Below, piece after piece: positions 1,700 to 26,574 of a DNA stretch of 64,000 nucleotides (the stretch's first letter is position 1; each line of letters opens with the position of its first letter). The position numbers were made by a program, and so were the translations under genes. The stretch covers positions 1 to 64,000 of IMG/VR virus record IMGVR_UViG_3300031994_000064; one strand, 5' to 3'. The notes under the pieces are model-generated. The model made no database searches and was not told the origin of the DNA. It was given only the letters and a program-made list of their open reading frames with translations. This stretch comes from a virus (lineage: Duplodnaviria > Caudoviricetes).

Positions 1700-2100
1700 C
1701 GCCGAAACTCCAATATATAGGATAATATATATATATTCCATATATAGGATAATATATAAAGGATATTTATTTATACTATTGACTTGTATTTATAACAGAT
1801 AGGATAACAATAAAGAAAGAATATACAATAAAGGACAATAGTAAATAGGAGTAGCTATATATGTAGTTTCAGTATATACGGAGTAGATGATATATTGTTT
1901 ATACTCCTTTATATATTATAGACTATAATATTATCCTTGTTTATTTTTTTTTTTTTTTTTTTTATAATATAGATACTATAATCCTATATAGTCAGTAAAT
2001 AAATAAGTCCTTAGTATATATATAATAATCCTTAATATTGCGTCCACATTTTTATAAAAATATTGGTACGGTATTAAAGAATAATATATATATAGTAGCG
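1700..2100. other. Extremely AT-rich non-coding tract with TA runs and a T20 homopolymer
   Basis: ATATATAGGATAATATATA twice (about 1714 and 1740); T run 1944-1963. Confidence 0.7.
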
Positions 2101-2325
2101 GCGGCCGTTTTTTTTCGTTGGTGGCTGGTTTTTTGCTTTTTGCCGTTGGTTTTTTGCCGTCTAAACTTGTTAACAATTACAAGTTATATAGTAACCAGCG
2201 CACCGCAAAAAGCGTATAAATACCTTATTTATAGCCATTTATAGTATTTATTCAATGTATTAGTTATTCACAATTGATTGTTTATAAATAATTTTAATAG
2301 TATATTGTTTTATTAAAATAATATG

Positions 2326-2333
2326 TATTTTTG
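2326..2333 (+). promoter_or_regulatory. Bacteroidota sigma -7 element, early rightward promoter
   Basis: TATTTTTG preceded by an AT-rich upstream region, at the start of the long plus-strand gene run. Confidence 0.7.
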
Positions 2334-2339
2334 CATATC

Positions 2340-2707
2340 ATTTGAAAGCACAATGAATGCCGCCGGTGACAATAAGAGCGGAGGAGTGTTTCGGAATGGT
2401 CAGGACTCGGAAAGGAAGTAGTGAAGCCAAGTCCGAGGATGTATGAGAGTTCTTTGATTTACTGGCGTACTGTGGGACTGTGAAGTCCCACGATGAGTTC
2501 GGACGAATACGCTCCGGCGACCGATTGGCGGATGAGGCATCGCGCCAGCACGGAAAACCATAAAAGGATTCAGACGTGTCGATTTCCTTCTGTTAGACGT
2601 GTGATTCATTCTTCCAACAAACCCAATCGGGGAACGATTTATATGGAGCCACTTGGTGTCAAGCCTCGGATGAGGTGCAGTTCTGGGTTCGATTCCCACG
2701 GCTTCCG
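2340..2707 (+). ncRNA. Structured leader or ncRNA ending in a 62-nt tRNA-like mini-cloverleaf (2645-2706)
   Basis: Follows the promoter with no credible ORF. Hairpin GTGGGACT-GTGA-AGTCCCAC at 2472-2491; T-arm TGGG-TTCGATT-CCCA at 2684-2698; acceptor-like GGAGCC/GGCTTC. Confidence 0.55.
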
Positions 2708-2739
2708 CTGATTAACTTTTCACTTAAATCCAAACAATA

Positions 2740-3018
2740 ATGAAAAATTCCGAATTGATTTACAGATTTGTCGCGGGAACCGCCCGCGACGGACAGCACA
2801 CCGGAAGTGTGTCTGTCAAGGACAACAAACTCTATTCCTACGCAACCTGCATCGCGGAGCGCGTCGTGGACAAAATCGTGGTGAACGAAACCAAGTATTC
2901 CGTCACCACGTCCAAGCACCAAAGTTATCTGTATGGTGCTATCCGCCGCTACAACGAGTGCGCGGAATTCGTGAACGGCATAATGCGCGAGACGTACCGC
3001 CTTTCGGATGCCGTTTAA
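2740..3018 (+). CDS. Early hypothetical protein (92 aa)
   Basis: ORF with A-rich translation-initiation leader. Confidence 0.8.
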   Translation: MKNSELIYRFVAGTARDGQHTGSVSVKDNKLYSYATCIAERVVDKIVVNETKYSVTTSKHQSYLYGAIRRYNECAEFVNGIMRETYRLSDAV

Positions 3019-3083
3019 CCATCAAGGAAATCGGGCGGGAGACTGCCCGACTTCCTCTAAATTCACTTAAAAATCCAATTATT

Positions 3084-3269
3084 ATGAGCAAACTTATGAT
3101 TTCCTCCGTGGTCATGCAGACCATAGGAGTGGCTTTATGGATTGCCGCGTGCGTTGTCAAGGCGGCGAACGGGATTTCTGACGGATGGGTTGATGCCGCC
3201 GTCCTTGTGCAGGCTGTCGGCTTGCTTCCGGTATTGATTGAATCAAAGATTGAGGAACGCAAGTTGTAG
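3084..3269 (+). CDS. Small two-TM membrane protein (61 aa)
   Basis: Internal ATG of ORF 2958-3269 after the ATTCACTTAAAAATCCAATTATT leader; two hydrophobic segments. Confidence 0.7.
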   Translation: MSKLMISSVVMQTIGVALWIAACVVKAANGISDGWVDAAVLVQAVGLLPVLIESKIEERKL

Positions 3270-3336
3270 GTAACCAACGGGCGGACGGTCTTTGCGGGCT
3301 GTCCGCTTGCTACAATTCACTTAAAAAATCAGTATT

Positions 3337-3516
3337 ATGGAAAACTTTATCTGTTATGTCACGGGATTGTTCAACCGTGACTCCGAGTTGAGCAGAAACG
3401 CTCAGAATGTCCGAACGATTGTCAGCGAGGAGCTTTCCTCGATGAACGAATGCGTCACGGACTACATTGTTCGCACCATTTCTTCCGCCGTATGCGGCAA
3501 CTTGGGGATTGCGTAG
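3337..3516 (+). CDS. Small hypothetical protein (59 aa)
   Basis: Translated by hand (MENFICYVTGLFNRDSEL...GNLGIA); below the ORF-track cutoff; same leader type as its neighbours. Confidence 0.65.
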   Translation: MENFICYVTGLFNRDSELSRNAQNVRTIVSEELSSMNECVTDYIVRTISSAVCGNLGIA

Positions 3517-3586
3517 GCGAACGACTTTATCCCGAACGACCTTTGCGGGTTGCTCGGGAGCGAATTATTCACTAAAATCAAAAAAA

Positions 3587-4033
3587 ATGGGAATTATAGA
3601 ACAAATCGAAAAAACGTACAAGGACAATCCGATGTACATGGTTAAGTTCTCTATAAACTACGAAGGAGAGAACTATGACGGTCTTGAAATCGGAGACGTT
3701 GAACAATCCGAAATGCAATGCGGAACTATGGTTCAGTACCAGCCGATAACATACGAAGGAGTTGAAGTTGGATATGTACGAGACCGCATTTCAGGGAAAC
3801 TGTTTGACCCTCCTGTTCAGTCTTACTGCCATTTTTTAGCCGACTGTTCAGAAGATGATATTCTTACTTACGAACAGAAGTCCGATGTTCATTTCGCAGA
3901 CTGCGGAGAACATTTTGAAATGCAGTTTGCAACGATGAAGGATTTGTGGAATTATGTTTACAACGCTGGCGTCCTTGACGAAATCATTGCAAAAAAAGAA
4001 CTTGCTGAGGAATACGGCGGGTTTTATTGCTAA
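3587..4033 (+). CDS. Acidic hypothetical protein (148 aa)
   Basis: Internal ATG of ORF 3467-4033 after a TTCACT leader. Confidence 0.75.
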   Translation: MGIIEQIEKTYKDNPMYMVKFSINYEGENYDGLEIGDVEQSEMQCGTMVQYQPITYEGVEVGYVRDRISGKLFDPPVQSYCHFLADCSEDDILTYEQKSDVHFADCGEHFEMQFATMKDLWNYVYNAGVLDEIIAKKELAEEYGGFYC

Positions 4034-4109
4034 AAATTATCCGTGGTGAGGCTTGGCCGCCTTTCCATGGGCGAAAATTCACTTATGTTTAACCAAAAAA
4101 TTAGTCATT

Positions 4110-4604
4110 ATGGAAAAGAAAATGATTTCAGTTTTAGAGGATGATTTCAACCGTCTTAAAAGAGAGGTTGAGGAACTTCGTGCAGAGAACAGAGAACTCC
4201 GCAGAGGCAGCGAGCGGTACGACTACCGCGAGCAGGTGACTTCCGATGTCAAAGACGCTGTTTATGAGCGTTACACAAAAGAGGAAATTCGTGAGCGATT
4301 GGAAGACCGCAATGACTTCGAAGAGGAGTTGAACGATGACCTCTTCATGTCGGATTCAGTGACTGGCAACGCGAGTGGCTCTTACTTCTGCAATACGTGG
4401 AAAGCCGAGAACGCTCTTATGCACAACCTTGACTTGCTTGGAGAGGCAATCGAAGAGTTTGGCGGTGTCGGTAATGTTCTTGAAGGCGGAGCCGAGGTTT
4501 GCGATGTTACAATCCGCTGCTACTTGCTTGCAGAGTGTATCTCGGATGCCATTGACGAAATCGAGGATGAACTTGACGAAGAGAGCGAAGAAGACGAAGA
4601 ATAA
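4110..4604 (+). CDS. Acidic phage hypothetical protein with DSVTGNASGSY motif
   Basis: Internal ATG; motif recalled from uncharacterised gut-phage proteins. Confidence 0.8.
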   Translation: MEKKMISVLEDDFNRLKREVEELRAENRELRRGSERYDYREQVTSDVKDAVYERYTKEEIRERLEDRNDFEEELNDDLFMSDSVTGNASGSYFCNTWKAENALMHNLDLLGEAIEEFGGVGNVLEGGAEVCDVTIRCYLLAECISDAIDEIEDELDEESEEDEE

Positions 4605-4670
4605 CCACGACATTTCCCGCGTTGGTTTGACCGCCTGCGCGGGAACAAGTTTCACTAAAACCTTAAAATT

Positions 4671-4874
4671 ATGTGCTACAAAATCAAAGTTAATGATTCA
4701 ATCGGTGTGGCTATGTTCGGAAAATACCATTCTCCGCGCCACGCTGAAATCGGTATGCGTGTAAACGGCATATCGGGGACTGTTGTGAAGTCCGAGCCGT
4801 ATGAGCTTGCGACATTCACAATCCAACACGAGTTCAACGTGTTCAACATGCTTGGAAAGGAGGTTCGGTCATGA
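4671..4874 (+). CDS. Small hypothetical protein (67 aa)
   Basis: ORF track; TTCACT leader. Confidence 0.7.
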   Translation: MCYKIKVNDSIGVAMFGKYHSPRHAEIGMRVNGISGTVVKSEPYELATFTIQHEFNVFNMLGKEVRS

Positions 4875-5041
4875 GTTCAAAACGCTGCACGAGAATCCTC
4901 GAAAAATGGTTTGAGGAAGACGGTCAAGAACTTGCCGACTACATCCTCGACCTTTGCGAGCAATATTGGGAAGTCAAGCTGCTTGAAACCATTGACCACG
5001 AGGACGGCTCTGTCACTTGCCGATGGGCTGTGACGGAGTGA
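4871..5041 (+). CDS. Small hypothetical protein (56 aa)
   Basis: Translated by hand (MSSKRCTRILEKWF...RWAVTE); ATGA overlap with the upstream stop. Confidence 0.65.
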   Translation: MSSKRCTRILEKWFEEDGQELADYILDLCEQYWEVKLLETIDHEDGSVTCRWAVTE

Positions 5042-5237
5042 CAAATTCGGTTTGCGGTGGGGATACCTGCCGCATTCCGCTAATTCACTAAAAGCGTTTT
5101 TAAGCCCTATTTTGAGCGTTTTTAATCTTTTTGAATATCTTATACCAAAAAGATATTTTAACGAGAAAAAAACGGCAAATAAAGCGCAAATAAACGTATT
5201 TTTTGAAATATCATTTATTAACTAAAATATCAAAAGT

Positions 5238-6017
5238 ATGAAAAGCATTGAAAAATTATCAGCTGCGTTGGAAAGTCTTACTCGGGAATTTTCAGAATCA
5301 AAAAACAGTGTCGTGTCGGATGCCATCATCGCCATTCACGAGTTCATCGTTGACAACGCGCCCGTCAAAAAGTCGGAGTTGTCGGTTTGGGAGTTTGTGT
5401 CGAACGACAAATTGAGACCGAACATGATGACGGTGTTCCACGACAACGATTGGAAAGCGGCTGTTGCAACGGATGCACACGTTTTGTTCGTCAACCCCTC
5501 GGAGTACATCGACAGCACCGATGCCGAGGAAGCCAACGGTCAGAAGTTCGACTATGACGGCTACACAGGATTGATGCGCGACAAGTACGGCAAAGTCGTT
5601 GAACGAGACAACGGCACGTTTGGAGACCGCTACCCGAATTACCGAGCCGTAATTCCCGCCGAGGACAGACAGATGCCGTTCGAGGTGCGCTCCGACTTGA
5701 AGCAGTGCCGAGACATCGTGAAGTCAACGCTGAAACTTCGGACTGGCAAATCACGCAGCGAGAGCAACGCGCAAATCTGCATCAACAAGGATTTGAACAT
5801 CTGGATTGGCGAGAAGTACGTTGACATCTTAATTCGCGCAGGCGTTGACTGTTGGACTTGCTCGAAAAAAAATCCGAGCGGTAGTGCGCTTGTCAAGCGT
5901 TTCGCTGACGGCAGAATCCTTTTGATGATGCCTATGCTTGTTGAGCGCGAGGCTTGGGATTGCCAAAGCCCCGAAGATGGAATTGACCTCGTGAACATGG
6001 TCAAGTTCTACGTCTAA
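5238..6017 (+). CDS. Hypothetical protein (259 aa) with weak resemblance to beta-clamp-like phage proteins
   Basis: AVATDAHVL and terminal LLMMPM motifs recall the sliding-clamp fold; not confirmed. Confidence 0.6.
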   Translation: MKSIEKLSAALESLTREFSESKNSVVSDAIIAIHEFIVDNAPVKKSELSVWEFVSNDKLRPNMMTVFHDNDWKAAVATDAHVLFVNPSEYIDSTDAEEANGQKFDYDGYTGLMRDKYGKVVERDNGTFGDRYPNYRAVIPAEDRQMPFEVRSDLKQCRDIVKSTLKLRTGKSRSESNAQICINKDLNIWIGEKYVDILIRAGVDCWTCSKKNPSGSALVKRFADGRILLMMPMLVEREAWDCQSPEDGIDLVNMVKFYV

Positions 6018-6082
6018 CAGGTTATGCGGGGAGAAATCTCCGCACAGCCGCAAATTCACTAACAACTTAAATTCAAAACAAT

Positions 6083-6304
6083 ATGGAAAAAGATTTGAAC
6101 CTTATGTCTGCAAAGTCCCAGATAGAGGGCTTGCAGCGGATCGTGAAAAGATACGAGCGGAAAGCCGAAAACGCTATGACAAACACGGCGGCATCCCGTT
6201 ATTGGGGTCTTGCCGCACGTTACAGCGGGAGAATCGGCGAACTCAGACGCTGGGTTGCCGAACGCGAGTTGAACATTGTCGGAAAGGAGGTGGCGGTATG
6301 TTAA
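6083..6304 (+). CDS. Small hypothetical protein (73 aa)
   Basis: ORF track; TTCACT leader. Confidence 0.7.
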   Translation: MEKDLNLMSAKSQIEGLQRIVKRYERKAENAMTNTAASRYWGLAARYSGRIGELRRWVAERELNIVGKEVAVC

Positions 6305-6804
6305 TCGACGCAATCCTCGACAGACGAGCCGACAGAGAGGATGGAATCTTCAACTATGACCCAAAGAAGTTGTATAATTACCTAATTGATTCTATTCATC
6401 CGTCATATCATGATGTAGCACGCGCCATGGACAAAGGCTCGAATATGGAAGTGCAAGCCGAAATGTGCGCCTACATTGACTTGGAAGAGTACAACCCAAA
6501 CATCAAGTGCTTCGTGAACTCTGTGGATTGGCTGACTGCCGACCCTCAGAAGCCGAAACAAGAGATTTTTCAAGAAATCCGCGCCTACAAATCACGCGAG
6601 GATATGTTCGCTCACAATCCTCTCGACTTGAAGTTTGTGGTAAACCAAAACCCCGATTACCGTGAGCGTTACGAAAAGGAGTACGCTCGCGGTGTTGCGG
6701 CAGGATTGACGGTGAAGTACGCTCGCCCCGTAGTGGCTGTCTTGACCACGATAGACGGCAAGACGGAGGTCACGGAAGTTCACCAAGCAAGACGCTGCAA
6801 GTAA
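6298..6804 (+). CDS. Hypothetical protein (168 aa)
   Basis: Internal ATG (MLIDAILDRR) after AAGGAGG, overlapping the upstream stop. Confidence 0.75.
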   Translation: MLIDAILDRRADREDGIFNYDPKKLYNYLIDSIHPSYHDVARAMDKGSNMEVQAEMCAYIDLEEYNPNIKCFVNSVDWLTADPQKPKQEIFQEIRAYKSREDMFAHNPLDLKFVVNQNPDYRERYEKEYARGVAAGLTVKYARPVVAVLTTIDGKTEVTEVHQARRCK

Positions 6805-6878
6805 CCTTGTTTCCCGCGAGGCGAGAGCCTTTCGGGAAACCTACAATTCACTAAATGTTTAACCAAAATTTCGGTATT

Positions 6879-7229
6879 ATGAATGGTAATTATCCTTTGG
6901 GCGCGGAGTATCTTCCAAACGCGCCTTTCAATCAGCCAGAACCGATTGAAAAAGACTATGACGTGGAAGTGACGGCAACGCTGTCTTGTTCCACGACAGT
7001 GACAAGCAATGACGCTTACTATGACGAGGACGGCGAGCTTTGCGAGGAAAATGTTTGTCTCGGTGTTGACTTTTACAACCAAAAGCACTCTCCAAAAGAC
7101 TTAATCAAGTACTTGTACAACATTCTTCGCGAGCATCCCGAAATAAAGTTCAGCGACAGAAAAAGTGTGCTTTACAGCTGCGGAATGTGGCTTGCCGGCA
7201 ACGAAGACCTTGAGGTCGAGGAGGCTTAA
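6879..7229 (+). CDS. Phage hypothetical protein (NYPLGAEY..NAPFNQ N-terminus)
   Basis: Internal ATG of ORF 6855-7229; N-terminal motif recalled from gut phages. Confidence 0.75.
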   Translation: MNGNYPLGAEYLPNAPFNQPEPIEKDYDVEVTATLSCSTTVTSNDAYYDEDGELCEENVCLGVDFYNQKHSPKDLIKYLYNILREHPEIKFSDRKSVLYSCGMWLAGNEDLEVEEA

Positions 7230-7465
7230 CGTAACAACCCTTTGAAAGAGTCCGCAATCGCAAACTCGGACGTTGACTTGTTGGCTGCTCGGAAAAAGCC
7301 GCGAAGCCCGTCTTGCCGTTCATCGGGAGAACACGGTGCGTCCTTGCACAACCTGCTGCTTTGTAACACGCACTTGGCGCATCTGTTCTCCCCGTTGTAC
7401 GGCATGAAAGTTGCGAAAACATCCTTGCCGTTGCCTAAGTCGTTCTGTTTGTTCGTTATCTTCAT
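7226..7465 (-). CDS. Small Cys-containing hypothetical protein (79 aa)
   Basis: ORF track; CxxC..C..C pattern; convergent with the early genes. Confidence 0.5.
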   Translation of the reverse strand: MKITNKQNDLGNGKDVFATFMPYNGENRCAKCVLQSSRLCKDAPCSPDERQDGLRGFFRAANKSTSEFAIADSFKGLLR

Positions 7466-7612
7466 CGCTTGTCAATTTTGCGGCAAAAGTGCGAAATTTG
7501 CGCGAAAAAACAAGCGGGATGGCGGCAAAAAATTTGTGTGTCGGTTCTAATCGGCTGATTTATAGCCACAAAAAAATTATTGTTTAGTATAACAACGTAT
7601 TGAAATAAATTG

Positions 7613-7620
7613 TATATTTG
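7613..7620 (+). promoter_or_regulatory. Bacteroidota sigma -7 element (TATATTTG)
   Basis: Consensus match in an AT-rich intergenic region. Confidence 0.65.
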
Positions 7621-7762
7621 CTCATCAAAATTAAAACAATATGATTATTTACATTTTGATTGGTGCGCTTGGGTGGATTCTTGAAGCCGTTGGAGGCGCA
7701 CTCATTGGGAAAGAACCCAAGTTATAGTTCCACGACCCCGCCTATGTAGGTAAAGTCTGGAA

Positions 7763-7836
7763 AGCCACGTAGTTCAGTTGGTTAGAACGGAGTGACATAT
7801 GTCGAGCGGTCGCGGGTTCGAGTCCCGCCGTGGCTT
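7763..7836 (+). tRNA. tRNA-like gene or pseudo-tRNA without a canonical anticodon arm
   Basis: Acceptor AGCCACG/CGTGGCT, D-arm GTTC/GAAC and T-arm GCGGG-TTCGAGT-CCCGC are canonical; positions 27-43 (GAGTG-ACATATG-TCGAG) cannot form the normal 5-bp stem. Confidence 0.65.
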
Positions 7837-7861
7837 TAAAACATCACTAAAAACCAAAAAT

Positions 7862-8164
7862 ATGAAAAATTTCAAAATCAGAAAAAAAGGCGTTGGTATG
7901 CGCCTCGGATTAAAAGACATCTATCATCTTCGCGGTAGGGTATTTGAAAAGGGCGGAGAACTTATGTATATCGCCCAAGTTGACATTTACTGCCGAAATG
8001 GATATGACGTGACCGTGTATGTAATTACAGAGGGTTACAAGTCCTTGTATTCCCGCCTTACGTGGCTTGACGAAGACACCGAAACGTGGATTGGGGAAAT
8101 CGTTGACCAAAATGGATGCGCGGTTAACGAACTTGTGATTCCCGCGAACGTATTGATAAATTAA
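7862..8164 (+). CDS. Hypothetical protein (100 aa)
   Basis: Internal ATG after an ATCACTAAAAACCAAAAAT leader. Confidence 0.7.
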   Translation: MKNFKIRKKGVGMRLGLKDIYHLRGRVFEKGGELMYIAQVDIYCRNGYDVTVYVITEGYKSLYSRLTWLDEDTETWIGEIVDQNGCAVNELVIPANVLIN

Positions 8165-8189
8165 CTATTCACCAAAAAACCAAAAAATT

Positions 8190-8531
8190 ATGGAAAGAAA
8201 CGATTTTAGAGAACTCGTGTACGATGCCATTTGCACCGTCACGGACAGCGAAACCGCCAACATCAAGGCAGACCTCGCGGCCGACTTGCGCGAGGAAATG
8301 TTATCAAGAGTGGTTGAGTTTGAGTTTATCAAGAAAGACGGCTCGACCCGACACGCTTACGGGACAATCTGCCCCGACTTTCTGCCGCAAGTTGAGAGTG
8401 ATGGCAACCCGAAGAAAGCACCTTCCGCACCGAACTATTCTTGTTTTCGGTATTATGACACCGAGAAGCAAGCGTGGAGAGCGTTTTCGGTTGTTAACCT
8501 CGTCTCTTTTGAGAAAGGAGGCGAGCAATGA
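8190..8531 (+). CDS. SH3 beta-barrel / WYL_2 (DUF2693-like) protein
   Basis: VEFEFIKKDGSTRHAYGT...YYDTEKQAWRAF motif. Confidence 0.75.
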   Translation: MERNDFRELVYDAICTVTDSETANIKADLAADLREEMLSRVVEFEFIKKDGSTRHAYGTICPDFLPQVESDGNPKKAPSAPNYSCFRYYDTEKQAWRAFSVVNLVSFEKGGEQ

Positions 8532-8752
8532 AGTATTGTCATATATCTGTATATTGGAACGACCTCAAAGGCGTTTGGCAAATCTTGGGGTTCAAGGAAG
8601 AAAATTCTGACATCTTTGATGTTCTTGCCGAGGTTTACAAACCGGACATTGAGCATGAGGACTTTTACGTTGAATATAAGAAAGAAGATGCAGAAACACT
8701 TGTTTCGGAAGAAATCGAAAAAATAAAATGCGGCTATTACATTGAATTTTAA
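8528..8752 (+). CDS. Small acidic hypothetical protein
   Basis: ORF track; ATGA coupling. Confidence 0.65.
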   Translation: MKYCHISVYWNDLKGVWQILGFKEENSDIFDVLAEVYKPDIEHEDFYVEYKKEDAETLVSEEIEKIKCGYYIEF

Positions 8753-8792
8753 CTAAAAGTTGCGCACGACACGGATTAAGTGCATATTTTTA

Positions 8793-8954
8793 ATGGATAA
8801 CAAAAAAATGTTAGAAGAATTTGAAAAATTGACGAAACCTTTGAACGAATGGTTGCAAAAAAACGGGAACCCTCATCAGCAAATCGTCATTTCGTTTGAC
8901 GGCGCAGAACTTGTCGAGGGTGTAATTTGCGTTCCGTTTCAAGTGAATGATTAA
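8793..8954 (+). CDS. Small phage hypothetical protein
   Basis: Internal ATG (MDNKKMLEEFEKLTKPLNEWL). Confidence 0.6.
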   Translation: MDNKKMLEEFEKLTKPLNEWLQKNGNPHQQIVISFDGAELVEGVICVPFQVND

Positions 8955-8967
8955 AAAAATATTCAAT

Positions 8968-9246
8968 ATGGTAGAAAACGTAGAAATTATCAGAACAGAA
9001 ATGGAGCGTCTGAACAAGGGCATTCGGACGCTCGCCGAAGAAATCGGCACAAGCACCGCCACCATCGTCAAAGCCCGCGATGGGAAGAACGTGACCACCG
9101 ACACTTTGGCGGCGGTCGCAGAGGCACTTGGGCTGAAAGTTGTAATCGTCAAGGTCGAGAACGCCGATGTCAAAGCGTATCAACGCAAAAAGCCCGTAAA
9201 GAGAAGAAGGGCGAAGAAAATCCCCGTGCCGAGAATAAACAAGTAA
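8968..9246 (+). CDS. XRE/Cro-like helix-turn-helix regulator
   Basis: IRTLAEEIGTSTATIVKARDG...TLAAVAEALG pattern. Confidence 0.75.
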   Translation: MVENVEIIRTEMERLNKGIRTLAEEIGTSTATIVKARDGKNVTTDTLAAVAEALGLKVVIVKVENADVKAYQRKKPVKRRRAKKIPVPRINK

Positions 9247-9275
9247 ACAATCACTAAACACCAAAAAAAATCATT

Positions 9276-10109
9276 ATGGAAAAACAAACAATCACCACAA
9301 AGGTTGAGACAATCTCACCGAACACCGCGATGACTTACCTCAAAAACGCGGGAAAAAACCGAAAGTTATCGGAGAAAAAAGTGCAGGACTACGCCAAGCA
9401 GATGACCGATGGCGAGTGGGTGCTGAACGGTGAACCCATCATCTTCGGCAAGTCCGGCAACCTCATTGACGGGCAGCACAGACTTCGTGCGGTCATCTAT
9501 GCAAACGCAAGAGTGCAAATGCTTGTCGTGCGCGGAGTCAACGATGAATACTTTGACAGCATTGACAGCGGAAAGTCACGTTCTCTGCAAGACGTGTTTT
9601 CTTGCAAAGATATTGCCAACTCTCAGTTGATTTCTTCCGTTGTGAAGAAATTCTACATCATGTGCAATAACCCGAATGCGTGCTTTTTCCGTGATTACAG
9701 CAAAGCAACAGCGAGCAGAAAGAAGATGCTTGAAATATACCACCGACACGCACAAACATTTGATTTTGCCGCTCAATTCGGGGCGAATATGTACGCGAAA
9801 AAGCGGCTTGCGTCACCCGCAAACATAGGCGCGATTTACGCATACTTGATGATTGTCAAAGAACACGAGCAAGAAAAGATTGAAGAGTTTTTCTGGTTCT
9901 TGTTCGGCAACAAAGATTATGCTATAATACCCGCTTATTCTGCATCGCTTGAAGTGAGAAACCGCATCATATCCGCAGCACTTTCTGGAAAGAAATTCGA
10001 GCCGAAGACATTGCAAAATATGTTCGCTATTGCTTGGAACTCTTTCATTGAAGTCAAAGAGGTAAAAAGGCTGAACGTCAGCAACGAGGAAATCATTGAG
10101 TTTTTATAA
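9276..10109 (+). CDS. ParB/Srx-like N-terminal domain protein
   Basis: NRKLS...GEPIIF...LIDGQHRLRAV motif. Confidence 0.75.
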   Translation: MEKQTITTKVETISPNTAMTYLKNAGKNRKLSEKKVQDYAKQMTDGEWVLNGEPIIFGKSGNLIDGQHRLRAVIYANARVQMLVVRGVNDEYFDSIDSGKSRSLQDVFSCKDIANSQLISSVVKKFYIMCNNPNACFFRDYSKATASRKKMLEIYHRHAQTFDFAAQFGANMYAKKRLASPANIGAIYAYLMIVKEHEQEKIEEFFWFLFGNKDYAIIPAYSASLEVRNRIISAALSGKKFEPKTLQNMFAIAWNSFIEVKEVKRLNVSNEEIIEFL

Positions 10110-14746: not shown

Positions 14747-15661
14747 TTAAGCGCAAATACCGACAAACTTGCCACCGTTCTCTATATACTGTCGGTTTTC
14801 GTACTCTAACTGTACCAGCAATTTATCTTTGGGTGCGCGGTAGTTGTCGTATCTCAACATAGGAATGTCATAAGGATTATATACATAAGTATTAGCCAAT
14901 ATCTTATAAGAGTATAGAGTATCAGTATCAGAGTAATATACGTAGAACTGACAATTATCCCTAACACAATGTATCAGCTTTTTCAAACTGCCGACAAAAC
15001 GACTTGCGTTTTTGTAAACATCGCGGTGTCTGTTCGGCTCTTTGCGAAATATTTTTGCCTTTTCGCAAATCTTTATGTATTTTGACACGTAACTTTTCGA
15101 TATCCCGAACCTTGCGGCGAGCGTTTCGTATGTCACACCGTTGTCATAGAACTCGTCAATATCAAAACCAAGAGAACGTGAGCGTCGGATTGACTGTTTA
15201 TGTTCTTTTTTGTCGTGCGGGTTTTTGATTTTGCACTTCAATTCCATAACATACCCGATGGCACGCATCGTAGCGGAGAAGATATACTTGGCAAATTCTA
15301 TTGCAGCGGCTCTTATACTTGCGTAGTCGCTAAATTCGATGATAAAATTGCGTTCTTTCCTTTTGCTTTTGAGAGTCTTGAAATGGAGCGTATTGTTTTC
15401 AACTGTTGCAAGACCAAAGTGCATGAGCGTGTCAACATAATGCCCGACCGTTTCGCGGTGGAGGAAAACGCCGTAGAGTTTCTTGTAGATTTCCCTTACC
15501 TTGTACTTGCTGTACTTGTTGATGGTATGGTAGCCGTTTGCAAGCATACGCGAAGAAAACACCATCGCGTTCGTCAGGTCAATGATAGACACACCATTAA
15601 AGAGCTTGTCTTTGTCAAGCCCCAATCTGTGCACCAAATGCTTTGACATCTTTACTTCCAT
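14747..15661 (-). CDS. Basic HTH-containing protein, candidate replication initiator
   Basis: YETLAARFGISKSYVSKYI HTH-like segment; first gene of the leftward operon. Function inferred. Confidence 0.55.
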   Translation of the reverse strand: MEVKMSKHLVHRLGLDKDKLFNGVSIIDLTNAMVFSSRMLANGYHTINKYSKYKVREIYKKLYGVFLHRETVGHYVDTLMHFGLATVENNTLHFKTLKSKRKERNFIIEFSDYASIRAAAIEFAKYIFSATMRAIGYVMELKCKIKNPHDKKEHKQSIRRSRSLGFDIDEFYDNGVTYETLAARFGISKSYVSKYIKICEKAKIFRKEPNRHRDVYKNASRFVGSLKKLIHCVRDNCQFYVYYSDTDTLYSYKILANTYVYNPYDIPMLRYDNYRAPKDKLLVQLEYENRQYIENGGKFVGICA

Positions 15662-15681
15662 ACTCGAATGTTTTAAAACCA

Positions 15682-15860
15682 AACGCCCCGCAACGAGTGT
15701 CGCGGAGCGTTCTTTTACTCGAACCTTGCCACCCCTCGGTTAAGAGGGGCGAAAGCAGACGCAAGGTGTATGAACATTTGAGTATATTTCTATCCTAAAC
15801 TGTTATCATTTCACGGTACGGCTGCTTTTCCGTTACTCGTCAAAAGACGCGGCAAAGATA
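15682..15860 (-). promoter_or_regulatory. Promoter (TATCTTTG 15853-15860) plus structured attenuator-like leader
   Basis: Nested hairpin 15724-15766, then hairpin 15682-15711 followed by TGGTTTT on the minus strand. Confidence 0.55.
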
Positions 15861-15988: not shown

Positions 15989-15996
15989 TATATTTG
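15989..15996 (+). promoter_or_regulatory. Bacteroidota sigma -7 element (TATATTTG), divergent partner of 15853
   Basis: Consensus match upstream of 16040. Confidence 0.65.
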
Positions 15997-16724: not shown

Positions 16725-16762
16725 GTTACTGCGATAGTTTATTCACTTAAAAATCTGATATA

Positions 16763-19628: not shown

Positions 19629-20543
19629 ATGGTACAACAACAAAACCAAATCCAACAGCAGCAGCCGAAACTCGGCATCGCCGCACTCAAAAACGTCCTC
19701 AACAACGACGCTATCAAACAGAAATTTGCAGATATGCTCGGCAAAGAATCGCAAGGGTTTATAACGAGCGTTATTGCTGTTTGCTCAAACAACCAGCTTC
19801 TTGCAAAAGCAGACGCTAACAGTATTGTTCTTGCGGCTTCTCTTGCGGCAGGAATGAAGCTACCGATAAACCCAAATCTGGGTTATGCGGCTATTGTTCC
19901 GTTTAGAGACGGCAAAACAGGAATCACTACAGGAACCATGCAAATAATGCGCAATGGTTGGGTAGAGCTTGCTTTGCGTACTGGAAAAGTTGCGAAAATA
20001 ACCAACGAACTCGTTTACGAGGGAGAACTTGTCAGCAAAAACCGCTTTACCGATGAGTATGTGTTTGACGAAACAAAGCGCGTGTCAGACAAGGTTATAG
20101 GCGCGATGGCATACGTTAAATTGACGAAAGAAATGGGAGGTCTTGAAAAGACCGTTTACTGGACTACCGAACAGTGCTTAAAACACGGCAAGAGATATTC
20201 GCAAACATTCAGAAAAGGCTACGGACTTTGGGTTTCCGACCCGGAAAGTATGTTTTTGAAAAGCGTGCTAAAGCATTTGATTGTCAAATATGTTCCAAAA
20301 TCTATCGAGCTACAAAAAGCTATTGATTCAGACCAAGCCGCGTTCACTGGCGACATCGACAACCCGAAACCTGTTTACGTTGACAATCCGCACGAGGAGG
20401 AGGTCGGCGAACCAGTCGATTTCGAGGAGGTCGATACCGAAAGCGGCGAGGTTCAGCAAGAGGAAGAACCCAAAACAACCATCGTTGTCGAGGATGACGA
20501 GCCGACCAACGGCGAACTTTTCAACGAAAAAGAACAACAATAG
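19629..20543 (+). CDS. recT: RecT/Red-beta family single-strand annealing protein
   Basis: LPINPNLGYAAIVPF, QIMRNGWVELALRTG, MFLKSVLK; acidic tail. Confidence 0.85.
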   Translation: MVQQQNQIQQQQPKLGIAALKNVLNNDAIKQKFADMLGKESQGFITSVIAVCSNNQLLAKADANSIVLAASLAAGMKLPINPNLGYAAIVPFRDGKTGITTGTMQIMRNGWVELALRTGKVAKITNELVYEGELVSKNRFTDEYVFDETKRVSDKVIGAMAYVKLTKEMGGLEKTVYWTTEQCLKHGKRYSQTFRKGYGLWVSDPESMFLKSVLKHLIVKYVPKSIELQKAIDSDQAAFTGDIDNPKPVYVDNPHEEEVGEPVDFEEVDTESGEVQQEEEPKTTIVVEDDEPTNGELFNEKEQQ

Positions 20544-20904: not shown

Positions 20905-21630
20905 ATGGCGAAAATAAAGATTTTAGGAAGCGGCAGCAGCGGTAACGGCTACATCATCGAGGCGGGCGGTCAATCGCTTATCCTTGAACTCGGCATGCCG
21001 TATGAAGACTACATCGTGAACGCCGATTTTTCAAGCATCGTGGCTTGCATCGTGTCTCACAGACACCGCGACCACTACCGCGAGAAAGTGGCTAAAAGGT
21101 TCGCCAAAATGGGCGTTAACGTGTTCGCCAACCAAGACGTTCACGATGCCTACACGGGCAAAGACAACCCTATAAAGGTGCTTGAGAAAGGCAAAGCCAA
21201 CTTTTTCGGCGACTTTGTTGTGCAAGCGATTCCGCTGTCGCACAGCGTCCCGAATTTCGGCTACCTAATAAAACACCCGAATATCGGTCGCCTCGTGTTC
21301 GCCACCGACACCAACGAGTTCAACTACAAGTTCAAGGAGATAAACCACTGGCTCATCGAATGCAACTACGACCCGAACATCGTTGTTGACACAAAACTAT
21401 CCGGAGAAGACGTGAGAAGCAACTACGGCGACCACCTCTCAAAACAGAAATGCTTCGAGGTGCTGCAAAACAACTACGGCGTGTTCACGAAGACCATCAC
21501 GCTCATCCATTTGAGCGACAGCAACAGCAACGCAAAAGCTTTCAAACAAGAACTGCAAGACCTTCTGAACTACGACAAAATAGAGGTCGCGGGGCTTACC
21601 AAAGACGTTCAAGTCATTAACCTACTTTGA
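20905..21630 (+). CDS. Metallo-beta-lactamase-fold hydrolase (phage nuclease type)
   Basis: GSGSSGNGY, SHRHRDH, LSHSV, ATDT, IECNYD, IHLS motifs. Confidence 0.85.
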   Translation: MAKIKILGSGSSGNGYIIEAGGQSLILELGMPYEDYIVNADFSSIVACIVSHRHRDHYREKVAKRFAKMGVNVFANQDVHDAYTGKDNPIKVLEKGKANFFGDFVVQAIPLSHSVPNFGYLIKHPNIGRLVFATDTNEFNYKFKEINHWLIECNYDPNIVVDTKLSGEDVRSNYGDHLSKQKCFEVLQNNYGVFTKTITLIHLSDSNSNAKAFKQELQDLLNYDKIEVAGLTKDVQVINLL

Positions 21631-21915
21631 TTCGCAAATAAAACGTCGCGCTGACTGACGTGCGAAGCGGGTTAGCCAAAGCCCCTGTCAGCAATAGGGA
21701 GCTACGTTGCGGGAGAATGAAACAATAGGCACTTCGGGGCGGTCGCCCTAACCCCGAACTCTGCGGACAGTGGTTAAAAAAAGCGAAAGCGACGGTGCTG
21801 CTGCCAAGCAAACCTCCCGACAACATTGGCGAAGGGCGCACAACGCGGGCAACCGCGACTTATACCGAAAAGGTATCACGGGCAACGCAGACGAACTGCG
21901 GAAACGATTAAAACA
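21630..21915 (+). ncRNA. IscB omegaRNA (HEARO-like scaffold)
   Basis: TTAGCC...GCTACGTT...ATAGGCAC...CTCTGCG...GGTTAAA...AAACC...ACAACATTGGCGAAGG landmarks directly 5' of iscB. Confidence 0.85.
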
Positions 21916-21922
21916 TTGAACT

Positions 21923-23161
21923 ATGGTGTATGTTTTAGACAAAGACGGCAGACCTTTGATGCCGACAAAGCGACACAGAAAAGTCAGACGGCTTCTTCGT
22001 GACGGTCTTGCTGTTGTCGTGAGACGAACACCGTTCACCATCAGACTTCTGTTTGACACGACCCATTACAAGCAGAATGTCACTCTTGGAATTGATGCAG
22101 GGTCTAAACACGTAGGTGTCAGCGCATCAACGAAAAACGAAGAACTCTTCAGTTCAGAGGTATTGCTACGCAATGATATTGTGAATTTATTAAGTACGAG
22201 ACGCGAGGCACGCAGAACAAGAAGAAGCAGAAAATTACGTCACAGAGCTGCAAGATTCAACAACAGACGAAAAGAAGATGGATGGCTTGCTCCGTCTGTA
22301 ATGCAGAAGGTTGACAGCCATATCAAGATTGCGAACCTTGTATGCTCAATTCTGCCTATTGATACAATTGTGATAGAGACAGCGCAGTTTGATACGCAGA
22401 AAATCAAAAATCCAGATATTAGCGGAGAAGAGTATCATCACGGAGAACAAGAAGGCTTTTGGAACGTGCGCGAATATGTTTTGTGGCGAGACGGTCACGT
22501 TTGCCAACACTGCAAAGGCAAAAGCGGCGACAAGATTTTGAACGTGCATCATCTTGAAAGCCGAAAGACGGGCGGCGACAGTCCAAACAATCTCATAACG
22601 CTTTGCGAAACGTGTCACAAATCATATCACAAAGGCGAGATTGAACTAAAATTCAAACACCGTTCAAATTCTTTGCGCGACGCGGCGTTTATGAATGTTA
22701 TGCGGTGGCGCGTGTATGAATTGATGAAAAAGATGTTTGCGGACAAGACCGTGAAGATTACTTATGGCTATCAGACAAAGCGCAAGCGCATTGAAAACGT
22801 AATAGAAAAGACGCATTGCGCGGACGCTTTTTGCATTGCTGGTAATTTAACTGCAAGACGCACAGACAGACTTTATAAAGGTCGTTTTGTCGCACGTCAC
22901 GCGAGAAGCCTTCACGTGTTTGTGCCAAAGAAAGGCGGAGTACGCAGAAGCACTATTGCAAACCATTGGATAGGGAAAAACAGATTGCAACGGTTTGATA
23001 CGGTTCGATACAACGGTGCTGATTGTTTTATTTCTGGAAGCTCAAACGGAATACCGTTTTTGCGTGATGCTGATTGGAAAAAAGTTACAAAAACATCAAT
23101 AGTAAATGCAAAATATGTCAAATTTATGTCTCGTAAGCATAGTTCTTTGTTGATTTTGTAA
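21923..23161 (+). CDS. iscB: IscB RNA-guided endonuclease (IS200/IS605 OMEGA)
   Basis: PLMP domain, RuvC-I GIDAG, Arg-rich bridge helix, RuvC-II IETAQFD, HNH (HHLESR..NNLITLCETCH), RuvC-III THCADA. Confidence 0.95.
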   Translation: MVYVLDKDGRPLMPTKRHRKVRRLLRDGLAVVVRRTPFTIRLLFDTTHYKQNVTLGIDAGSKHVGVSASTKNEELFSSEVLLRNDIVNLLSTRREARRTRRSRKLRHRAARFNNRRKEDGWLAPSVMQKVDSHIKIANLVCSILPIDTIVIETAQFDTQKIKNPDISGEEYHHGEQEGFWNVREYVLWRDGHVCQHCKGKSGDKILNVHHLESRKTGGDSPNNLITLCETCHKSYHKGEIELKFKHRSNSLRDAAFMNVMRWRVYELMKKMFADKTVKITYGYQTKRKRIENVIEKTHCADAFCIAGNLTARRTDRLYKGRFVARHARSLHVFVPKKGGVRRSTIANHWIGKNRLQRFDTVRYNGADCFISGSSNGIPFLRDADWKKVTKTSIVNAKYVKFMSRKHSSLLIL

Positions 23162-24049: not shown

Positions 24050-24120
24050 CAAACCATGCGGATTGAAACCATACCATATTTGGTGATTTTTTTGGATTTA
24101 TTTAGTGAATTGTGTGAAGA

Positions 24121-24146
24121 AGGGCGACTGTTAATTCAGCCGCCCT
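24121..24146. terminator. Hairpin between the convergent tRNA and lysis transcripts
   Basis: AGGGCGACTG-TTAATT-CAGCCGCCCT. Confidence 0.45.
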
Positions 24147-24203
24147 CTCTTCTTCTAACTAAAACACCTAAAAATTAAAAATTATGGAAAAAAACAACAC
24201 TGC

Positions 24204-26436: not shown

Positions 26437-26574
26437 GCCGCAAATATACAAAAAAATTAAATACAAACGGGCTTAATTTTTATAAAAGCTTTTTTTTAAA
26501 AATATCAAAATAGTTGTATCAACATATTGATTTTTCATTTATAAAAAATCATGAGCCTTTGCCATACTATTTTT

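Follow-up and report, generated by a model that had tools for sequence, protein, structure and literature searches.

The early RNase III sites of bacteriophage T7 leave a hairpin on the 3' end of each message, and in the mascRNA and menRNA of MALAT1 and MEN-beta (RF01684) a tRNA-like fold lies within a long transcript, with RNase P and RNase Z cuts forming the 3' end. In plant mitochondria tRNA-like folds, acceptor-like stem-loops and tRNAs, known as t-elements, stand at the mRNA boundaries of polycistronic transcripts and, in line with the mitochondrial tRNA-punctuation model, are thought to specify where RNase P and/or RNase Z generates the 5' and 3' ends of mRNAs (Forner et al. 2007, PMC1920247). 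In T4-type phages, PeSLs (promoter-early stem-loops) combine terminating stem-loops with a complete promoter of the host sigma-70 consensus and its AT-rich upstream element (Arbiol et al. 2010, PMC2839356; Comeau et al. 2014, PMC4122927). Here we consider a phage of a Bacteroidota host (genome 82,983 bp; the window analysed is its first 64,000 nucleotides) in which a 32-base hairpin and a TTCACT leader come after each of eight small early genes (Table 1). Our preferred explanation, to which we assign a probability of roughly 45%, is that these units serve as tRNA-style punctuation marks along one early RNA, which would be cut beside them; we found no published description of tRNA-mimic punctuation in phages.

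A sequence-only reading of the window had drawn attention to eight uniform hairpins, and all eight fold as it claimed, with helix limits within 1 nt of those it gave. Folding energies run from -17.7 to -22.9 kcal/mol (z -2.95 to -6.0), and equally good folds arose in 0-1 of 200 shuffles. The geometry it described also holds: the helices lie just 3' of stop codons at a gap of 2-13 nt (the stop being TAAC in four of the eight), TTCACT begins 4-8 nt and TCACT 5-9 nt after the helix, the loop families are those reported (TTTGCG twice, TTGRCC twice, GAGA/GAAA three times), and TCACT follows both the mini-tRNA (at 2720) and tRNA-Cys (at 7844). From TCACT to the next ATG there are 19-32 nt, the exception being unit 6 with 153 nt. 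U-tails are indeed absent; a terminator scan flagged none of the eight hairpins, yet detected U-tailed hairpins elsewhere in the phage, and the trailers are C-N-A and A-rich with no direct U-run, so that intrinsic terminators were rejected as a candidate. A ninth unit, on the minus strand, is longer than the eight, and only its motif is scored by the covariance model described below.

Table 1. Positions of the hairpin units and of the promoter, tRNA and motif features associated with them.
Feature	Extent or helix	Motif	Strand	Next ATG	Score (bits)	Remarks
Host-type (Bacteroidota sigma-A) -7 box at array head	2326-2333		+			TATTTTTG; consensus per PMC7366714
G+A-rich non-coding leader of early transcript	2340-2644		+			between promoter and mini-tRNA
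Anticodon-less mini-tRNA	2645-2706		+			acceptor and T arm with TTCGATT loop; slot before first gene
Leader motif of first gene		TTCACT 2719-2724	+	2740		21 nt upstream of ATG
Unit 1	3025-3056	TTCACT 3062-3067	+	3084	48.2	C at 3057
Unit 2	3278-3309	TTCACT 3316-3321	+	3337	47.8	
Unit 3	3530-3559	TTCACT 3568-3573	+	3587	48.4	
Unit 4	4040-4071	TTCACT 4078-4083	+	4110	40.4	ATG-proximal second copy TAACCA 4090
Unit 5	4614-4645	TTCACT 4651-4656	+	4671	48.1	
Unit 6	5048-5079	TTCACT 5084-5089	+		44.9	
Conserved AT-rich non-coding block	5092-5237	TAACTA 5219 (degenerate)	+			palindrome (AATATCTT..AAGATATT); near-consensus -7 box
Unit 7	6020-6049	TTCACT 6055-6060	+	6083	47.0	
Unit 8	6809-6840	TTCACT 6847-6852	+	6879	55.4	second copy TAACCA 6860
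tRNA-Cys in unit-type slot	7762-7848 (including TCACT)	TCACT 7844-7848	+	7862		TCACT 6 nt after tRNA
Motif-only gene start		TTCACC 8168-8173	+	8190		22 nt upstream of ATG; WYL_2 Sm-like protein
Motif-only gene start		ATCACT 9250-9255	+	9276		TCACT to ATG 25 nt
Motif-only gene start		TTCACT 16742-16747	+	16763		21 nt upstream of ATG
Ninth unit	24102-24152 (37-nt helix 24152-24116)	24109-24104	-			helix, ACACAA, TTCACTAA; dG -25, z -7.9

To describe the units we used a gapless alignment of 38 distinct copies, drawn from the phage itself and from seven contigs related to it. The covariance-model scan that had been proposed as a check, run with a model built on these 38, recovers exactly the eight and scores them at 40-55 bits (E <= 2e-7); all lie on the sense strand, and nothing else in the 82,983-bp genome exceeds 15 bits on either strand. 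Across the 38 units the helix register is fixed at 32 nt relative to TTCACT, 88.7% of cells being paired as against 49.8% in shuffles and 42-46% when the register is shifted by 1-3 columns, and covariation, that is change on both sides, is present at all 14 rungs. Wobble pairs are strongly asymmetric (85 G.U against 6 A.C), and the sense-strand fold is stronger than the antisense in 37 of the 38. From the wobble asymmetry and the stronger sense fold we conclude that the unit is an RNA structure; the asymmetry shows selection acting on the sense RNA and not on DNA, and the earlier proposal of RNA-level action is upheld. Each helix totals 30-32 nt and 13-14 rungs: seven well-paired rungs, irregular rungs 8 and 9 (unpaired in 8/38 and 12/38, the mismatch position being variable), four more well-paired rungs and a loop of 4-6 nt. 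The first position after the helix is C in every unit and the third is A in 34, giving a C-N-A trailer; the second is C in only one of the 38, and there is no CCA, which speaks against a tRNA-type element.

What the sequence-only reading lacked was the link to tRNA, which is seen in the acceptor-plus-T-arm size of the helix and in the mimics, tRNAs and ribozyme that occupy equivalent slots in relatives. A tRNA acceptor (7 bp) with its T arm (5 bp, 7-nt loop) amounts to 31 nt, against 30-32 nt for the unit helix. Real tRNAs stand at unit-like spacing to TCACT both here (7762-7837) and in four relatives (L002, L007, L008 and L010), and are thus interchangeable with the hairpins at an mRNA boundary, as among t-elements. 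The mini-tRNA has orthologues in L002, L003 and L008, the copy in L003 being matched by the Rfam tRNA model. Mimics in the relatives consist of a 5-8-bp acceptor, a linker of ~10 nt always containing GG and a 4-7-bp T stem with a 7-nt UYCRANN loop, the 3' acceptor strand following directly after the T-arm part. An N-C-A-A-A trailer, of the same kind as the C-N-A of the units, follows tRNA-Ser and tRNA-Met (two of the three phage tRNAs; tRNA-Cys lacks it), a mimic near 68.3 kb and, in relatives, each of the five tRNAs read. One relative, L005, carries in its early leader a ribozyme resembling twister-P1 (51.5 bits, E 2e-10), one pseudoknot pair of which is compensated; it takes the place of the mini-tRNA by position only, as the leaders of the two phages do not align. 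Since the helix has the size of a tRNA top half and the relatives' slots hold mimics, tRNAs and a twister-like ribozyme, tRNA-type processing is indicated. The acceptor/T-arm fold with its T-loop is present in the relatives and in the mini-tRNA, whereas the eight hairpins keep its length and trailer only; as they carry tetraloops or hexaloops, not T-loops, their recognition by tRNA enzymes would rest on length and on analogy with the relatives.

The units punctuate the genes of a single operon, as had been claimed: a host-type promoter stands at the head of the 4.9-kb array and there is no other within it, no further TAnnTTTG box occurring on the + strand between the first and position 7613. 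This -7 box is the Bacteroidota consensus (PMC7366714). Consensus boxes also stand in front of many further phage operons, which means that the phage in general is read by host RNA polymerase. The region around the promoter aligns with its counterpart in L005, and in L002 and L008 conservation extends over the 3' half of the leader (from 2448-2488 on); an Rfam search with the leader (2340-2644) gave no match. In the AT-rich block behind unit 6, the -7 box is near-consensus here and a perfect TATTTTTG in L005, L007 and L008, and the degenerate motif lies 19 nt upstream of ATG 5238. There are 13 copies of TTCACTWA itself where 5.9 +/- 2.2 would be expected, and nine of these are consecutive on the + strand at 2719-6847. 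Although TCACT is scarce genome-wide (56 against 126 expected), the shortage was rejected as a specific signal, the Markov-model ratio being only 0.81 (rank 40 of 512). The motif drifts by phage lineage (TTCACT, TTCACC, TTAACC) and is restricted to this part of the genome, most other gene starts being without it. In L005, L007 and L008, and at 15989 in the present phage, it sits 13-20 nt 3' of host-type -7 boxes and is therefore transcribed.

Gene gain and loss in the relatives had also been proposed as a check, and 46 of 112 blastn alignment ends fall in junction zones, which cover 13% of the sequence, a coincidence to be read with the caveat that mosaic joints tend to favour gene boundaries in any phage. 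Units of 60 nt are 89-97% identical between unrelated flanking genes; unit 5 and the unit following ArdA in L008, for example, share 97% identity over 60 nt. The genes flanking the units in this phage match no family, or only unnamed or marginal ones. It is because this patch of ~60 nt is common to otherwise unrelated genes that we consider the units places of cassette swapping by homologous recombination. Of the suggested recombination cassette system, then, the joints at the units stand and the dedicated machinery is not supported: beyond RecT, no integrase or recombinase was found in the ~66 ORFs scanned, and a DNA hairpin would not be expected to have the G.U asymmetry. The suggestion that cassettes may be anti-host holds in at least one case, the ArdA gene of a relative (L008:4932-5447). 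The genome also carries several TnpB and IscB-type elements.

In tRNA-style punctuation, host RNA polymerase would transcribe the early operon from the sole promoter at 2326, and the 32-nt helix with its C-N-A trailer would serve as a pared-down tRNA top half, that is, the stacked acceptor and T arms. A host tRNA-maturing nuclease would cut the long transcript beside the helix, the candidates being RNase Z, RNase P or both, or else an enzyme of RNase G/E type cutting within the A-rich trailer; B. thetaiotaomicron encodes homologues of RNase P, Z, BN, G and III (PMC7366714). The helix would remain on the upstream message as a 3' cap and the downstream message would keep an A-rich leader of ~25-30 nt, starting near UUCACU(A/U)AAA. 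UUCACU would be a lineage-specific leader element, which could determine cleavage or could act as a signal for stability or translation that a phage factor reads, and the ~60-nt patches would double as homologous-recombination sites exchanging gene cassettes. As the same slot in relatives holds tRNA look-alikes and real tRNAs, the hairpins most plausibly mark the cut-and-cap points of the early message.

Against this stands the motif: strictly conserved over 8-12 nt and drifting with lineage, it has the classic signature of a promoter for a phage factor, and a host nuclease leaves it unexplained. The main rival, possible though in our view doubtful, is accordingly a PeSL-like composite in which the hairpin would stop or dampen upstream transcription and (A/T)TTCACT(A/T)AAA would be a -10-only promoter, read by host RNA polymerase with a phage-specified (or unusual host) specificity factor, so that every cassette would have its own promoter. 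It would suit an invariant motif (6-8 nt) before every independently started gene of the region, the hairpin-free copies at 8168, 9250 and 16742, and the lineage dependence, as in promoters of phage-encoded factors; the layout, too, is that of PeSLs, which flank ORFans and mediate shuffling (PMC2839356, PMC4122927). However, no RNA polymerase, sigma or known transcription factor was found in the ~66 ORFs scanned, many small ones being familyless, and the motif is unlike the TAnnTTTG box of the phage's other operons, early and late. Several copies lie 13-20 nt 3' of such boxes, and with the motif as a -10 box leaders would be ~8-12 nt, a length rare in Bacteroides, where the modal leader is 23 nt (PMC7366714); a 5' end near the motif would come close to that mode. 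The hairpins also lack the U-tails seen on the phage's own terminators, and tRNAs and mimics at an equal distance from the motif are left unexplained.

It is unlikely, to our minds, that there is no cutting at all, the hairpins being passive stabilisers or insulators in an intact polycistronic RNA, where they would block 3' exonucleases after random decay and prevent mis-pairing of neighbouring cistrons, with UUCACU ~20 nt upstream of each start codon as a translation-initiation enhancer in a host without Shine-Dalgarno pairing. Such pairing is unused in Bacteroidetes (PMC7366714), the modal TCACT-ATG distance is 19-20 nt, a second copy (TAACCA/TCACCA) appears at 18-21 nt where the hairpin-proximal motif is farther off, and no unit is present where the stop and start codons of neighbouring genes overlap (4871, 6298). 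But the motif is limited to one part of the genome and missing at most other gene starts, and the fixed 32-nt length, the tRNA-like C-N-A trailer, the mimics and the leader ribozyme of a relative would go unexplained. Far less probable is that a phage enzyme moves cassettes at DNA sites dedicated to recombination (integron attC-like or IS200/IS605-like); coincident mosaic joints, 60-nt units shared by unrelated genes and the TnpB and IscB-type elements would fit this, but the wobble asymmetry reflects selection on sense RNA, the stems differ in sequence and have no conserved core, an integrase or Y1 transposase was not found in the ~66 ORFs scanned, and RecT with ordinary homologous exchange at the shared patch suffices for the joints. 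An N4-type hairpin promoter, which is a short DNA hairpin of 5-7 bp with a 3-nt loop read by a virion RNA polymerase, was rejected as a candidate because the stems have 13-14 rungs and are RNA-constrained and an RNA polymerase gene was not found among the ORFs scanned. We find it hardly credible that these are RNase III processing sites as between T7 early genes: the units are indeed hairpins between cistrons, with a central mismatch, in an early operon that host polymerase reads, yet helices of 13-14 rungs with a mismatch of varying position are too short beside T7 substrates, which span roughly two turns of helix and contain a defined internal loop, so the comparison made in the sequence-only reading fails, and neither tRNAs nor T-loop mimics are RNase III substrates.

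Set beside the described systems, then, the units share with the T7 sites per-gene hairpins in a host-transcribed early operon, and differ in their shorter helix, in having no fixed internal loop and in being related to tRNA and not to long double-stranded RNA. The mascRNA and menRNA are eukaryotic and single copy per transcript, and the one match to their model, by a unit of a relative (L009:468-527), is far below threshold (25.8 bits, E 0.68). With T4-type PeSLs (Arbiol et al. 2010, PMC2839356; Comeau et al. 2014, PMC4122927) they have in common a stem-loop and a conserved sequence between small ORFans of a hyperplastic early region, the signal being conserved between unrelated neighbours, with insertions, deletions and replacements joined at it. 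In contrast to PeSLs, the conserved part is unlike the host promoter consensus (TAnnTTTG/TTTG occurs in none of the eight units), the array has a single host promoter, and the stem-loop, without a U-tail, is tRNA-sized and interchangeable with tRNAs. Plant mitochondrial t-elements share the feature that tRNA-like folds, acceptor-like stem-loops and real tRNAs occupy one slot. Here, however, the setting is a phage in a bacterial host, the element is a plain 32-nt helix with C-N-A, and the units are tied to a conserved leader motif and to recombination joints, whereas the plant ends are without a conserved sequence motif.

All eight hairpins of the sequence-only reading fold as it proposed, with free energies of -17.7 to -22.9 kcal/mol and z scores of -2.95 to -6.0, and they have the surroundings it ascribed to them. 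The helix starts 2-13 nt downstream of a stop codon in 8/8, none carries a U-tail, and TTCACT follows 4-8 nt past each helix and opens an A-rich leader. The distance from TCACT to the next ATG is 19-32 nt, the exception being unit 6, where a conserved AT-rich block sits before the next gene. The motif also stands without a hairpin unit ahead of genes at 2740, 7862, 8190, 9276 and 16763, the first two of which follow the mini-tRNA and the tRNA-Cys, as had been noticed, and the minus strand carries a ninth unit, which is longer. No Rfam family matches any of the eight units. The raw genome-wide shortage of TCACT vanishes under a Markov model of neighbouring-base composition and is therefore not evidence for a signal.

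Close relatives were found in none of the public phage, IMG/VR and GTDB collections. Relatives could be reached only in metagenome assemblies, via homologues of a 259-aa protein of the array, and this gave eight further contigs of 37-92% protein identity, seven of them with scorable units. All have small-gene arrays whose 60-90-nt gaps hold the same architecture as the window. The window together with six of the contigs supplied 38 distinct units for an alignment anchored on the motif, and MAFFT set the whole helix without internal gaps. In the resulting 14-rung helix (columns 6-19/24-37; a rung is one pair position) 88.7% of cells are paired; sliding the 3' strand by 1-3 columns lowers this to 41.9-46.2%, and shuffles give 49.8%. 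Changes on both sides occur in 14/14 rungs, with a covariation score of 0.996 versus 0.26. Because pairing peaks in one register and all rungs covary, the length of the helix and its register to the motif are fixed while its sequence is free. G.U pairs outnumber A.C by 85 to 6, and in 37 of the 38 units folding is stronger for the sense than for the antisense strand (mean -19.5 versus -14.4 kcal/mol), which together place the constraint on the sense RNA and not on the DNA. Rungs 1-7 and 10-13 are well paired and rung 14 closes a loop of 4-6 nt; the irregular rungs 8 and 9 are unpaired in 8/38 and 12/38. The first base past the helix is C in 38/38, the second is C in only 1/38 and the third is A in 34/38. 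After this C-N-A trailer comes a spacer varying by up to 4 nt and then (A/T)TTCAC(T/C)(A/T)AAA. The covariance model that the sequence-only reading had called for was built from this alignment. With it the eight window units score 40-55 bits, and nothing further exceeds 15 bits on either strand of the entire genome; its matches in the relatives are all on the sense strand.

Features of the window, the remaining genome and related metagenome contigs (prefixed by contig handle)
Feature	Position	Strand	Remark
Terminator-like hairpin	2097-2109		U-tailed
Early promoter box	2326-2333	+	TAnnTTTG
Leader	2340-2644	+	purine-rich, ~300 nt, no Rfam match
Mini-tRNA	2645-2706
Units 1-8	3025-6852	+
Block common with L002	3310-3580		from spacer past one helix to just beyond next motif
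Unit shared without flanking genes	4035-4083
Unit shared without flanking genes	4614-4673		97% identical to L008:5462-5521
Unit shared without flanking genes	5045-5089
AT-rich block	5092-5237	+	non-coding
259-aa protein	5238-6017
tRNA-Cys	7762-7837
WYL_2 protein	8190-8531	+	Sm-like SH3 barrel
HTH paralogue	14747-15682	-
RecT	19629-20543
MBL-fold hydrolase	20905-21630	+	adjoins tRNA-Ser
HEARO RNA match	21620-21844	+	69 bits, threshold 83 bits
HNH-endonuclease ORF	21923-23161	+	412 aa
Ninth unit	24152-24102	-
TnpB/IS605-type gene	25228-26466	-
HTH paralogue	genome 64457-65392	-
tRNA mimic	genome ~68290-68390	+	outside the array
TnpB/IS605-type gene	genome 77350-78543	+
TnpB/IS605-type gene	L003:12004-13197		adjoins RecT
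tRNA mimic	L003:6184		in place of hairpin
Twister-P1-like sequence	L005:7083-7135	+	51.5 bits, E 2e-10
ArdA gene	L008:4932-5447	+
tRNA mimic	L008:6067		in place of hairpin

In the more distant contigs L005, L006 and L009, and occasionally in near ones (L003, L008), the hairpin is replaced by a different fold: a stem of 5-8 bp (mostly 7 bp), a linker of ~10 nt always containing GG, an inner stem of 4-7 bp with a 7-nt loop (UCCGAUU, UUCGACU or similar), and directly after it the returning 3' strand of the outer stem, with C as the next base. Such a fold is a tRNA top half, in which acceptor stem and T arm are stacked, and its GG linker lies at the docking place of the D loop. When the linker is left out, these mimics have 12-13 bp and 7 nt and so equal in helical length the plain hairpins with their 13-14 rungs and 4-6 nt; the linker enters at the point that corresponds to the irregular rungs 8-9 in the hairpins. 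Real tRNAs take the same slot at equal distance to TCACT, as tRNA-Cys does in the window and others do in L002, L007, L008 and L010, and truncated forms in L003, L008 and L010 are also matched by the Rfam tRNA model. A trailer N-C-A-A-A, of the same kind as the hairpins' C-N-A, follows tRNA-Ser (G-CAAA), tRNA-Met (A-CAAA), the relatives' tRNAs and the further mimic near 68.3 kb, which has the T arm GCGGTTCGACCCCGC and the G-CAAA of tRNA-Ser; in the window's tRNA-Cys the trailer is without the C. The motif itself drifts by lineage, from TTCACT to TTCACC in L005 and TTAACC in L006 and L009.

TAnnTTTG, usually as TAT(C/T/A)TTTG, occurs in many well-placed intergenic copies before the early, replication, head and tail operons, and it is the consensus box of the Bacteroidota primary sigma factor (PMC7366714); the host is therefore a member of the Bacteroidota and its RNA polymerase reads most of the phage. 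Sample names of the related contigs suggest a ruminant gut origin. A scan of ~66 ORFs against PHROGs, Pfam and NCBIfam found no phage RNA polymerase, sigma factor or RNase. On the + strand from 2326 to 7613 the only TAnnTTTG is the one at the start. The terminator-like hairpin lies before it, and after it come the non-coding leader, then the mini-tRNA, then the gene array, which reaches to 7229. L002 and L008 conserve the 3' half of the leader (from 2448-2488 on); the leader may be released as a separate RNA. Six relatives conserve the AT-rich block at 74-93%, more strongly than the genes beside it, and since it holds an 8-bp palindrome (AATATCTT..AAGATATT) and a near-consensus box at ~5196 it may be a regulated internal promoter. 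That box is perfect in L005, L007 and L008, where a TCAC motif lies 13-15 nt downstream; the same arrangement occurs at 15989 in the window, and the motif, being downstream of a host-type box, is thus transcribed.

L005 has a homologous early promoter and then a leader of ~600 nt, with no homology to the window phage detectable past the promoter. In this leader, ~65 nt before the first ORF, lies the twister-P1-like sequence, which scores under the Rfam threshold of 67.2 bits for lack of one optional stem; it retains the conserved core letters, and a pseudoknot pair shows one compensated exchange. It is the sole ribozyme-like match, and none occurs in the unit slots. By position alone, a predicted ribozyme-like RNA where the window phage has its mini-tRNA would fit a slot for cutting of the transcript.

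On the best-supported interpretation, tRNA-derived helices would act as RNA-level punctuation in a single early transcript made by the host. Host RNA polymerase would make one long early transcript, which host tRNA-maturing nucleases would cut at these helices; we infer such cutting because tRNAs and mimics are interchangeable, the trailer is shared, the helix has tRNA-like length, there is one promoter, U-tails are missing and a relative carries the ribozyme-like RNA. Homologues of RNase P, Z, BN, G and III are found in B. thetaiotaomicron (PMC7366714), and RNase Z clamps an acceptor/T-arm minihelix (PMC11996679). The comparison with T7 RNase III sites drawn in the sequence-only reading fails on helix size and RNA-strand asymmetry, and on the same two properties we reject an attC-like element and an N4-type promoter. 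A PeSL-like arrangement of terminator and promoter (after the promoter-early stem-loops of T4-type phages) seems unlikely to us; we keep it because the punctuation reading poorly explains a motif that is strictly conserved and lineage-specific. The 5' UTR in B. thetaiotaomicron has a modal length of 23 nt, with <4% under 10 nt (PMC7366714); an RNA end near the motif would give leaders close to this mode, and the motif acting as a -10-like box would give leaders of 8-12 nt. To account for the motif we also retain a translation-leader model, which we consider less probable still. The WYL_2 protein lies just past the array in 7/7 relatives whose fetched stretch reaches there, and could be the RNA-binding factor of the leader motif.

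Taken jointly, and with a probability of roughly 0.25, a clade of rumen/gut Bacteroidota phages would run its immediate-early anti-host array by tRNA-derived punctuation. Here tRNAs, top-half mimics and plain C-N-A helices of 32 nt, in which reduction would have reached its end, would recruit the host's tRNA-maturation nucleases to yield capped single-gene messages, whose lineage-specific UUCACU-type leader would be read by a co-evolving phage factor, possibly the WYL_2 protein, and the same 60-nt units would be portable joints for cassette exchange.

Evidence on these joints came from blastn of window 2300-9300 against the relatives, a junction zone being helix or tRNA through the next ATG. 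The expectation that gene gain and loss would break at the units is borne out: 46 of 112 alignment ends fall inside junction zones (13% of the sequence). Such ends do not count as separate events, and joints gather at gene boundaries in any phage. Stronger evidence comes from three units that are shared without their flanking genes; the L008 copy of unit 5, 97% identical, follows the ArdA gene and precedes an unrelated gene. We therefore regard units as homology patches where cassettes are exchanged. The suggestion of a recombination cassette system stands only as to exchange at the units; no integrase was found in the ~66 ORFs scanned, and RecT is present. ArdA, an anti-restriction gene in one array cassette of a relative, bears out the idea of anti-host cargo.

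The two ends of the single 82,983-bp sequence overlap by 58 nt, so the genome is circularly assembled, and the window is its first 64 kb. Besides RecT it encodes a tape-measure protein, large terminase, SPP1-type portal, DNA polymerase III beta clamp, methylases and several TnpB/IscB-type elements; 1229-aa and 822-aa proteins are without an informative family or solved relative. The HEARO match, directly 5' of the HNH ORF, and that ORF together resemble an IscB-type element residing in the phage, and both TnpB/IS605-type transposase-like genes of the phage have their own host-type promoter box overlapping the start. The HTH paralogues (311 and 325 aa, 35% identical) each head a divergent promoter region opposite a + strand operon. 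The MBL-fold protein was considered as a phage RNase Z and rejected: PhnP/RNase Z matches are weak, its relatives are YycJ-type hydrolases of 230-250 aa (35-40% identity to bacterial proteins), and no close solved relative was found. It may resemble phage anti-Pycsar (Apyc1) nucleases. Short palindromes are strongly avoided genome-wide: GTCGAC, CTCGAG, GGTACC and GGCGCC are absent against ~10-31 expected, words with CTAG or GATC are nearly absent, and GGWCC and CCWGG reach ~10% of expectation, which suggests restriction pressure.

The combination of a 32-nt helix, C-N-A and a TTCACT-type leader gives a search rule for early anti-defence arrays of uncultured phages, and the units offer a concrete mechanism for reshuffling of such arrays. 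The unit could also act as a compact insulator or processing part in engineered Bacteroides operons. If the cutting is real, it would explain how long arrays of tiny early genes are expressed from one promoter in Bacteroidota hosts without Shine-Dalgarno-based initiation, and related phages would have whittled a tRNA stepwise to a bare helix still working as a processing mark. We found no paper describing such tRNA-mimic/hairpin punctuation for phages. As shared homology patches for cassette exchange, the window units are like the PeSLs of T4-type phages, which serve likewise (PMC2839356, PMC4122927). As putative tRNA-derived punctuation of a transcript, with cutting in the phage a predicted step, they are like the t-elements that serve this way in plant mitochondria (PMC1920247); if cut in this manner, they would give mitochondrial tRNA punctuation a parallel in a bacterial virus.
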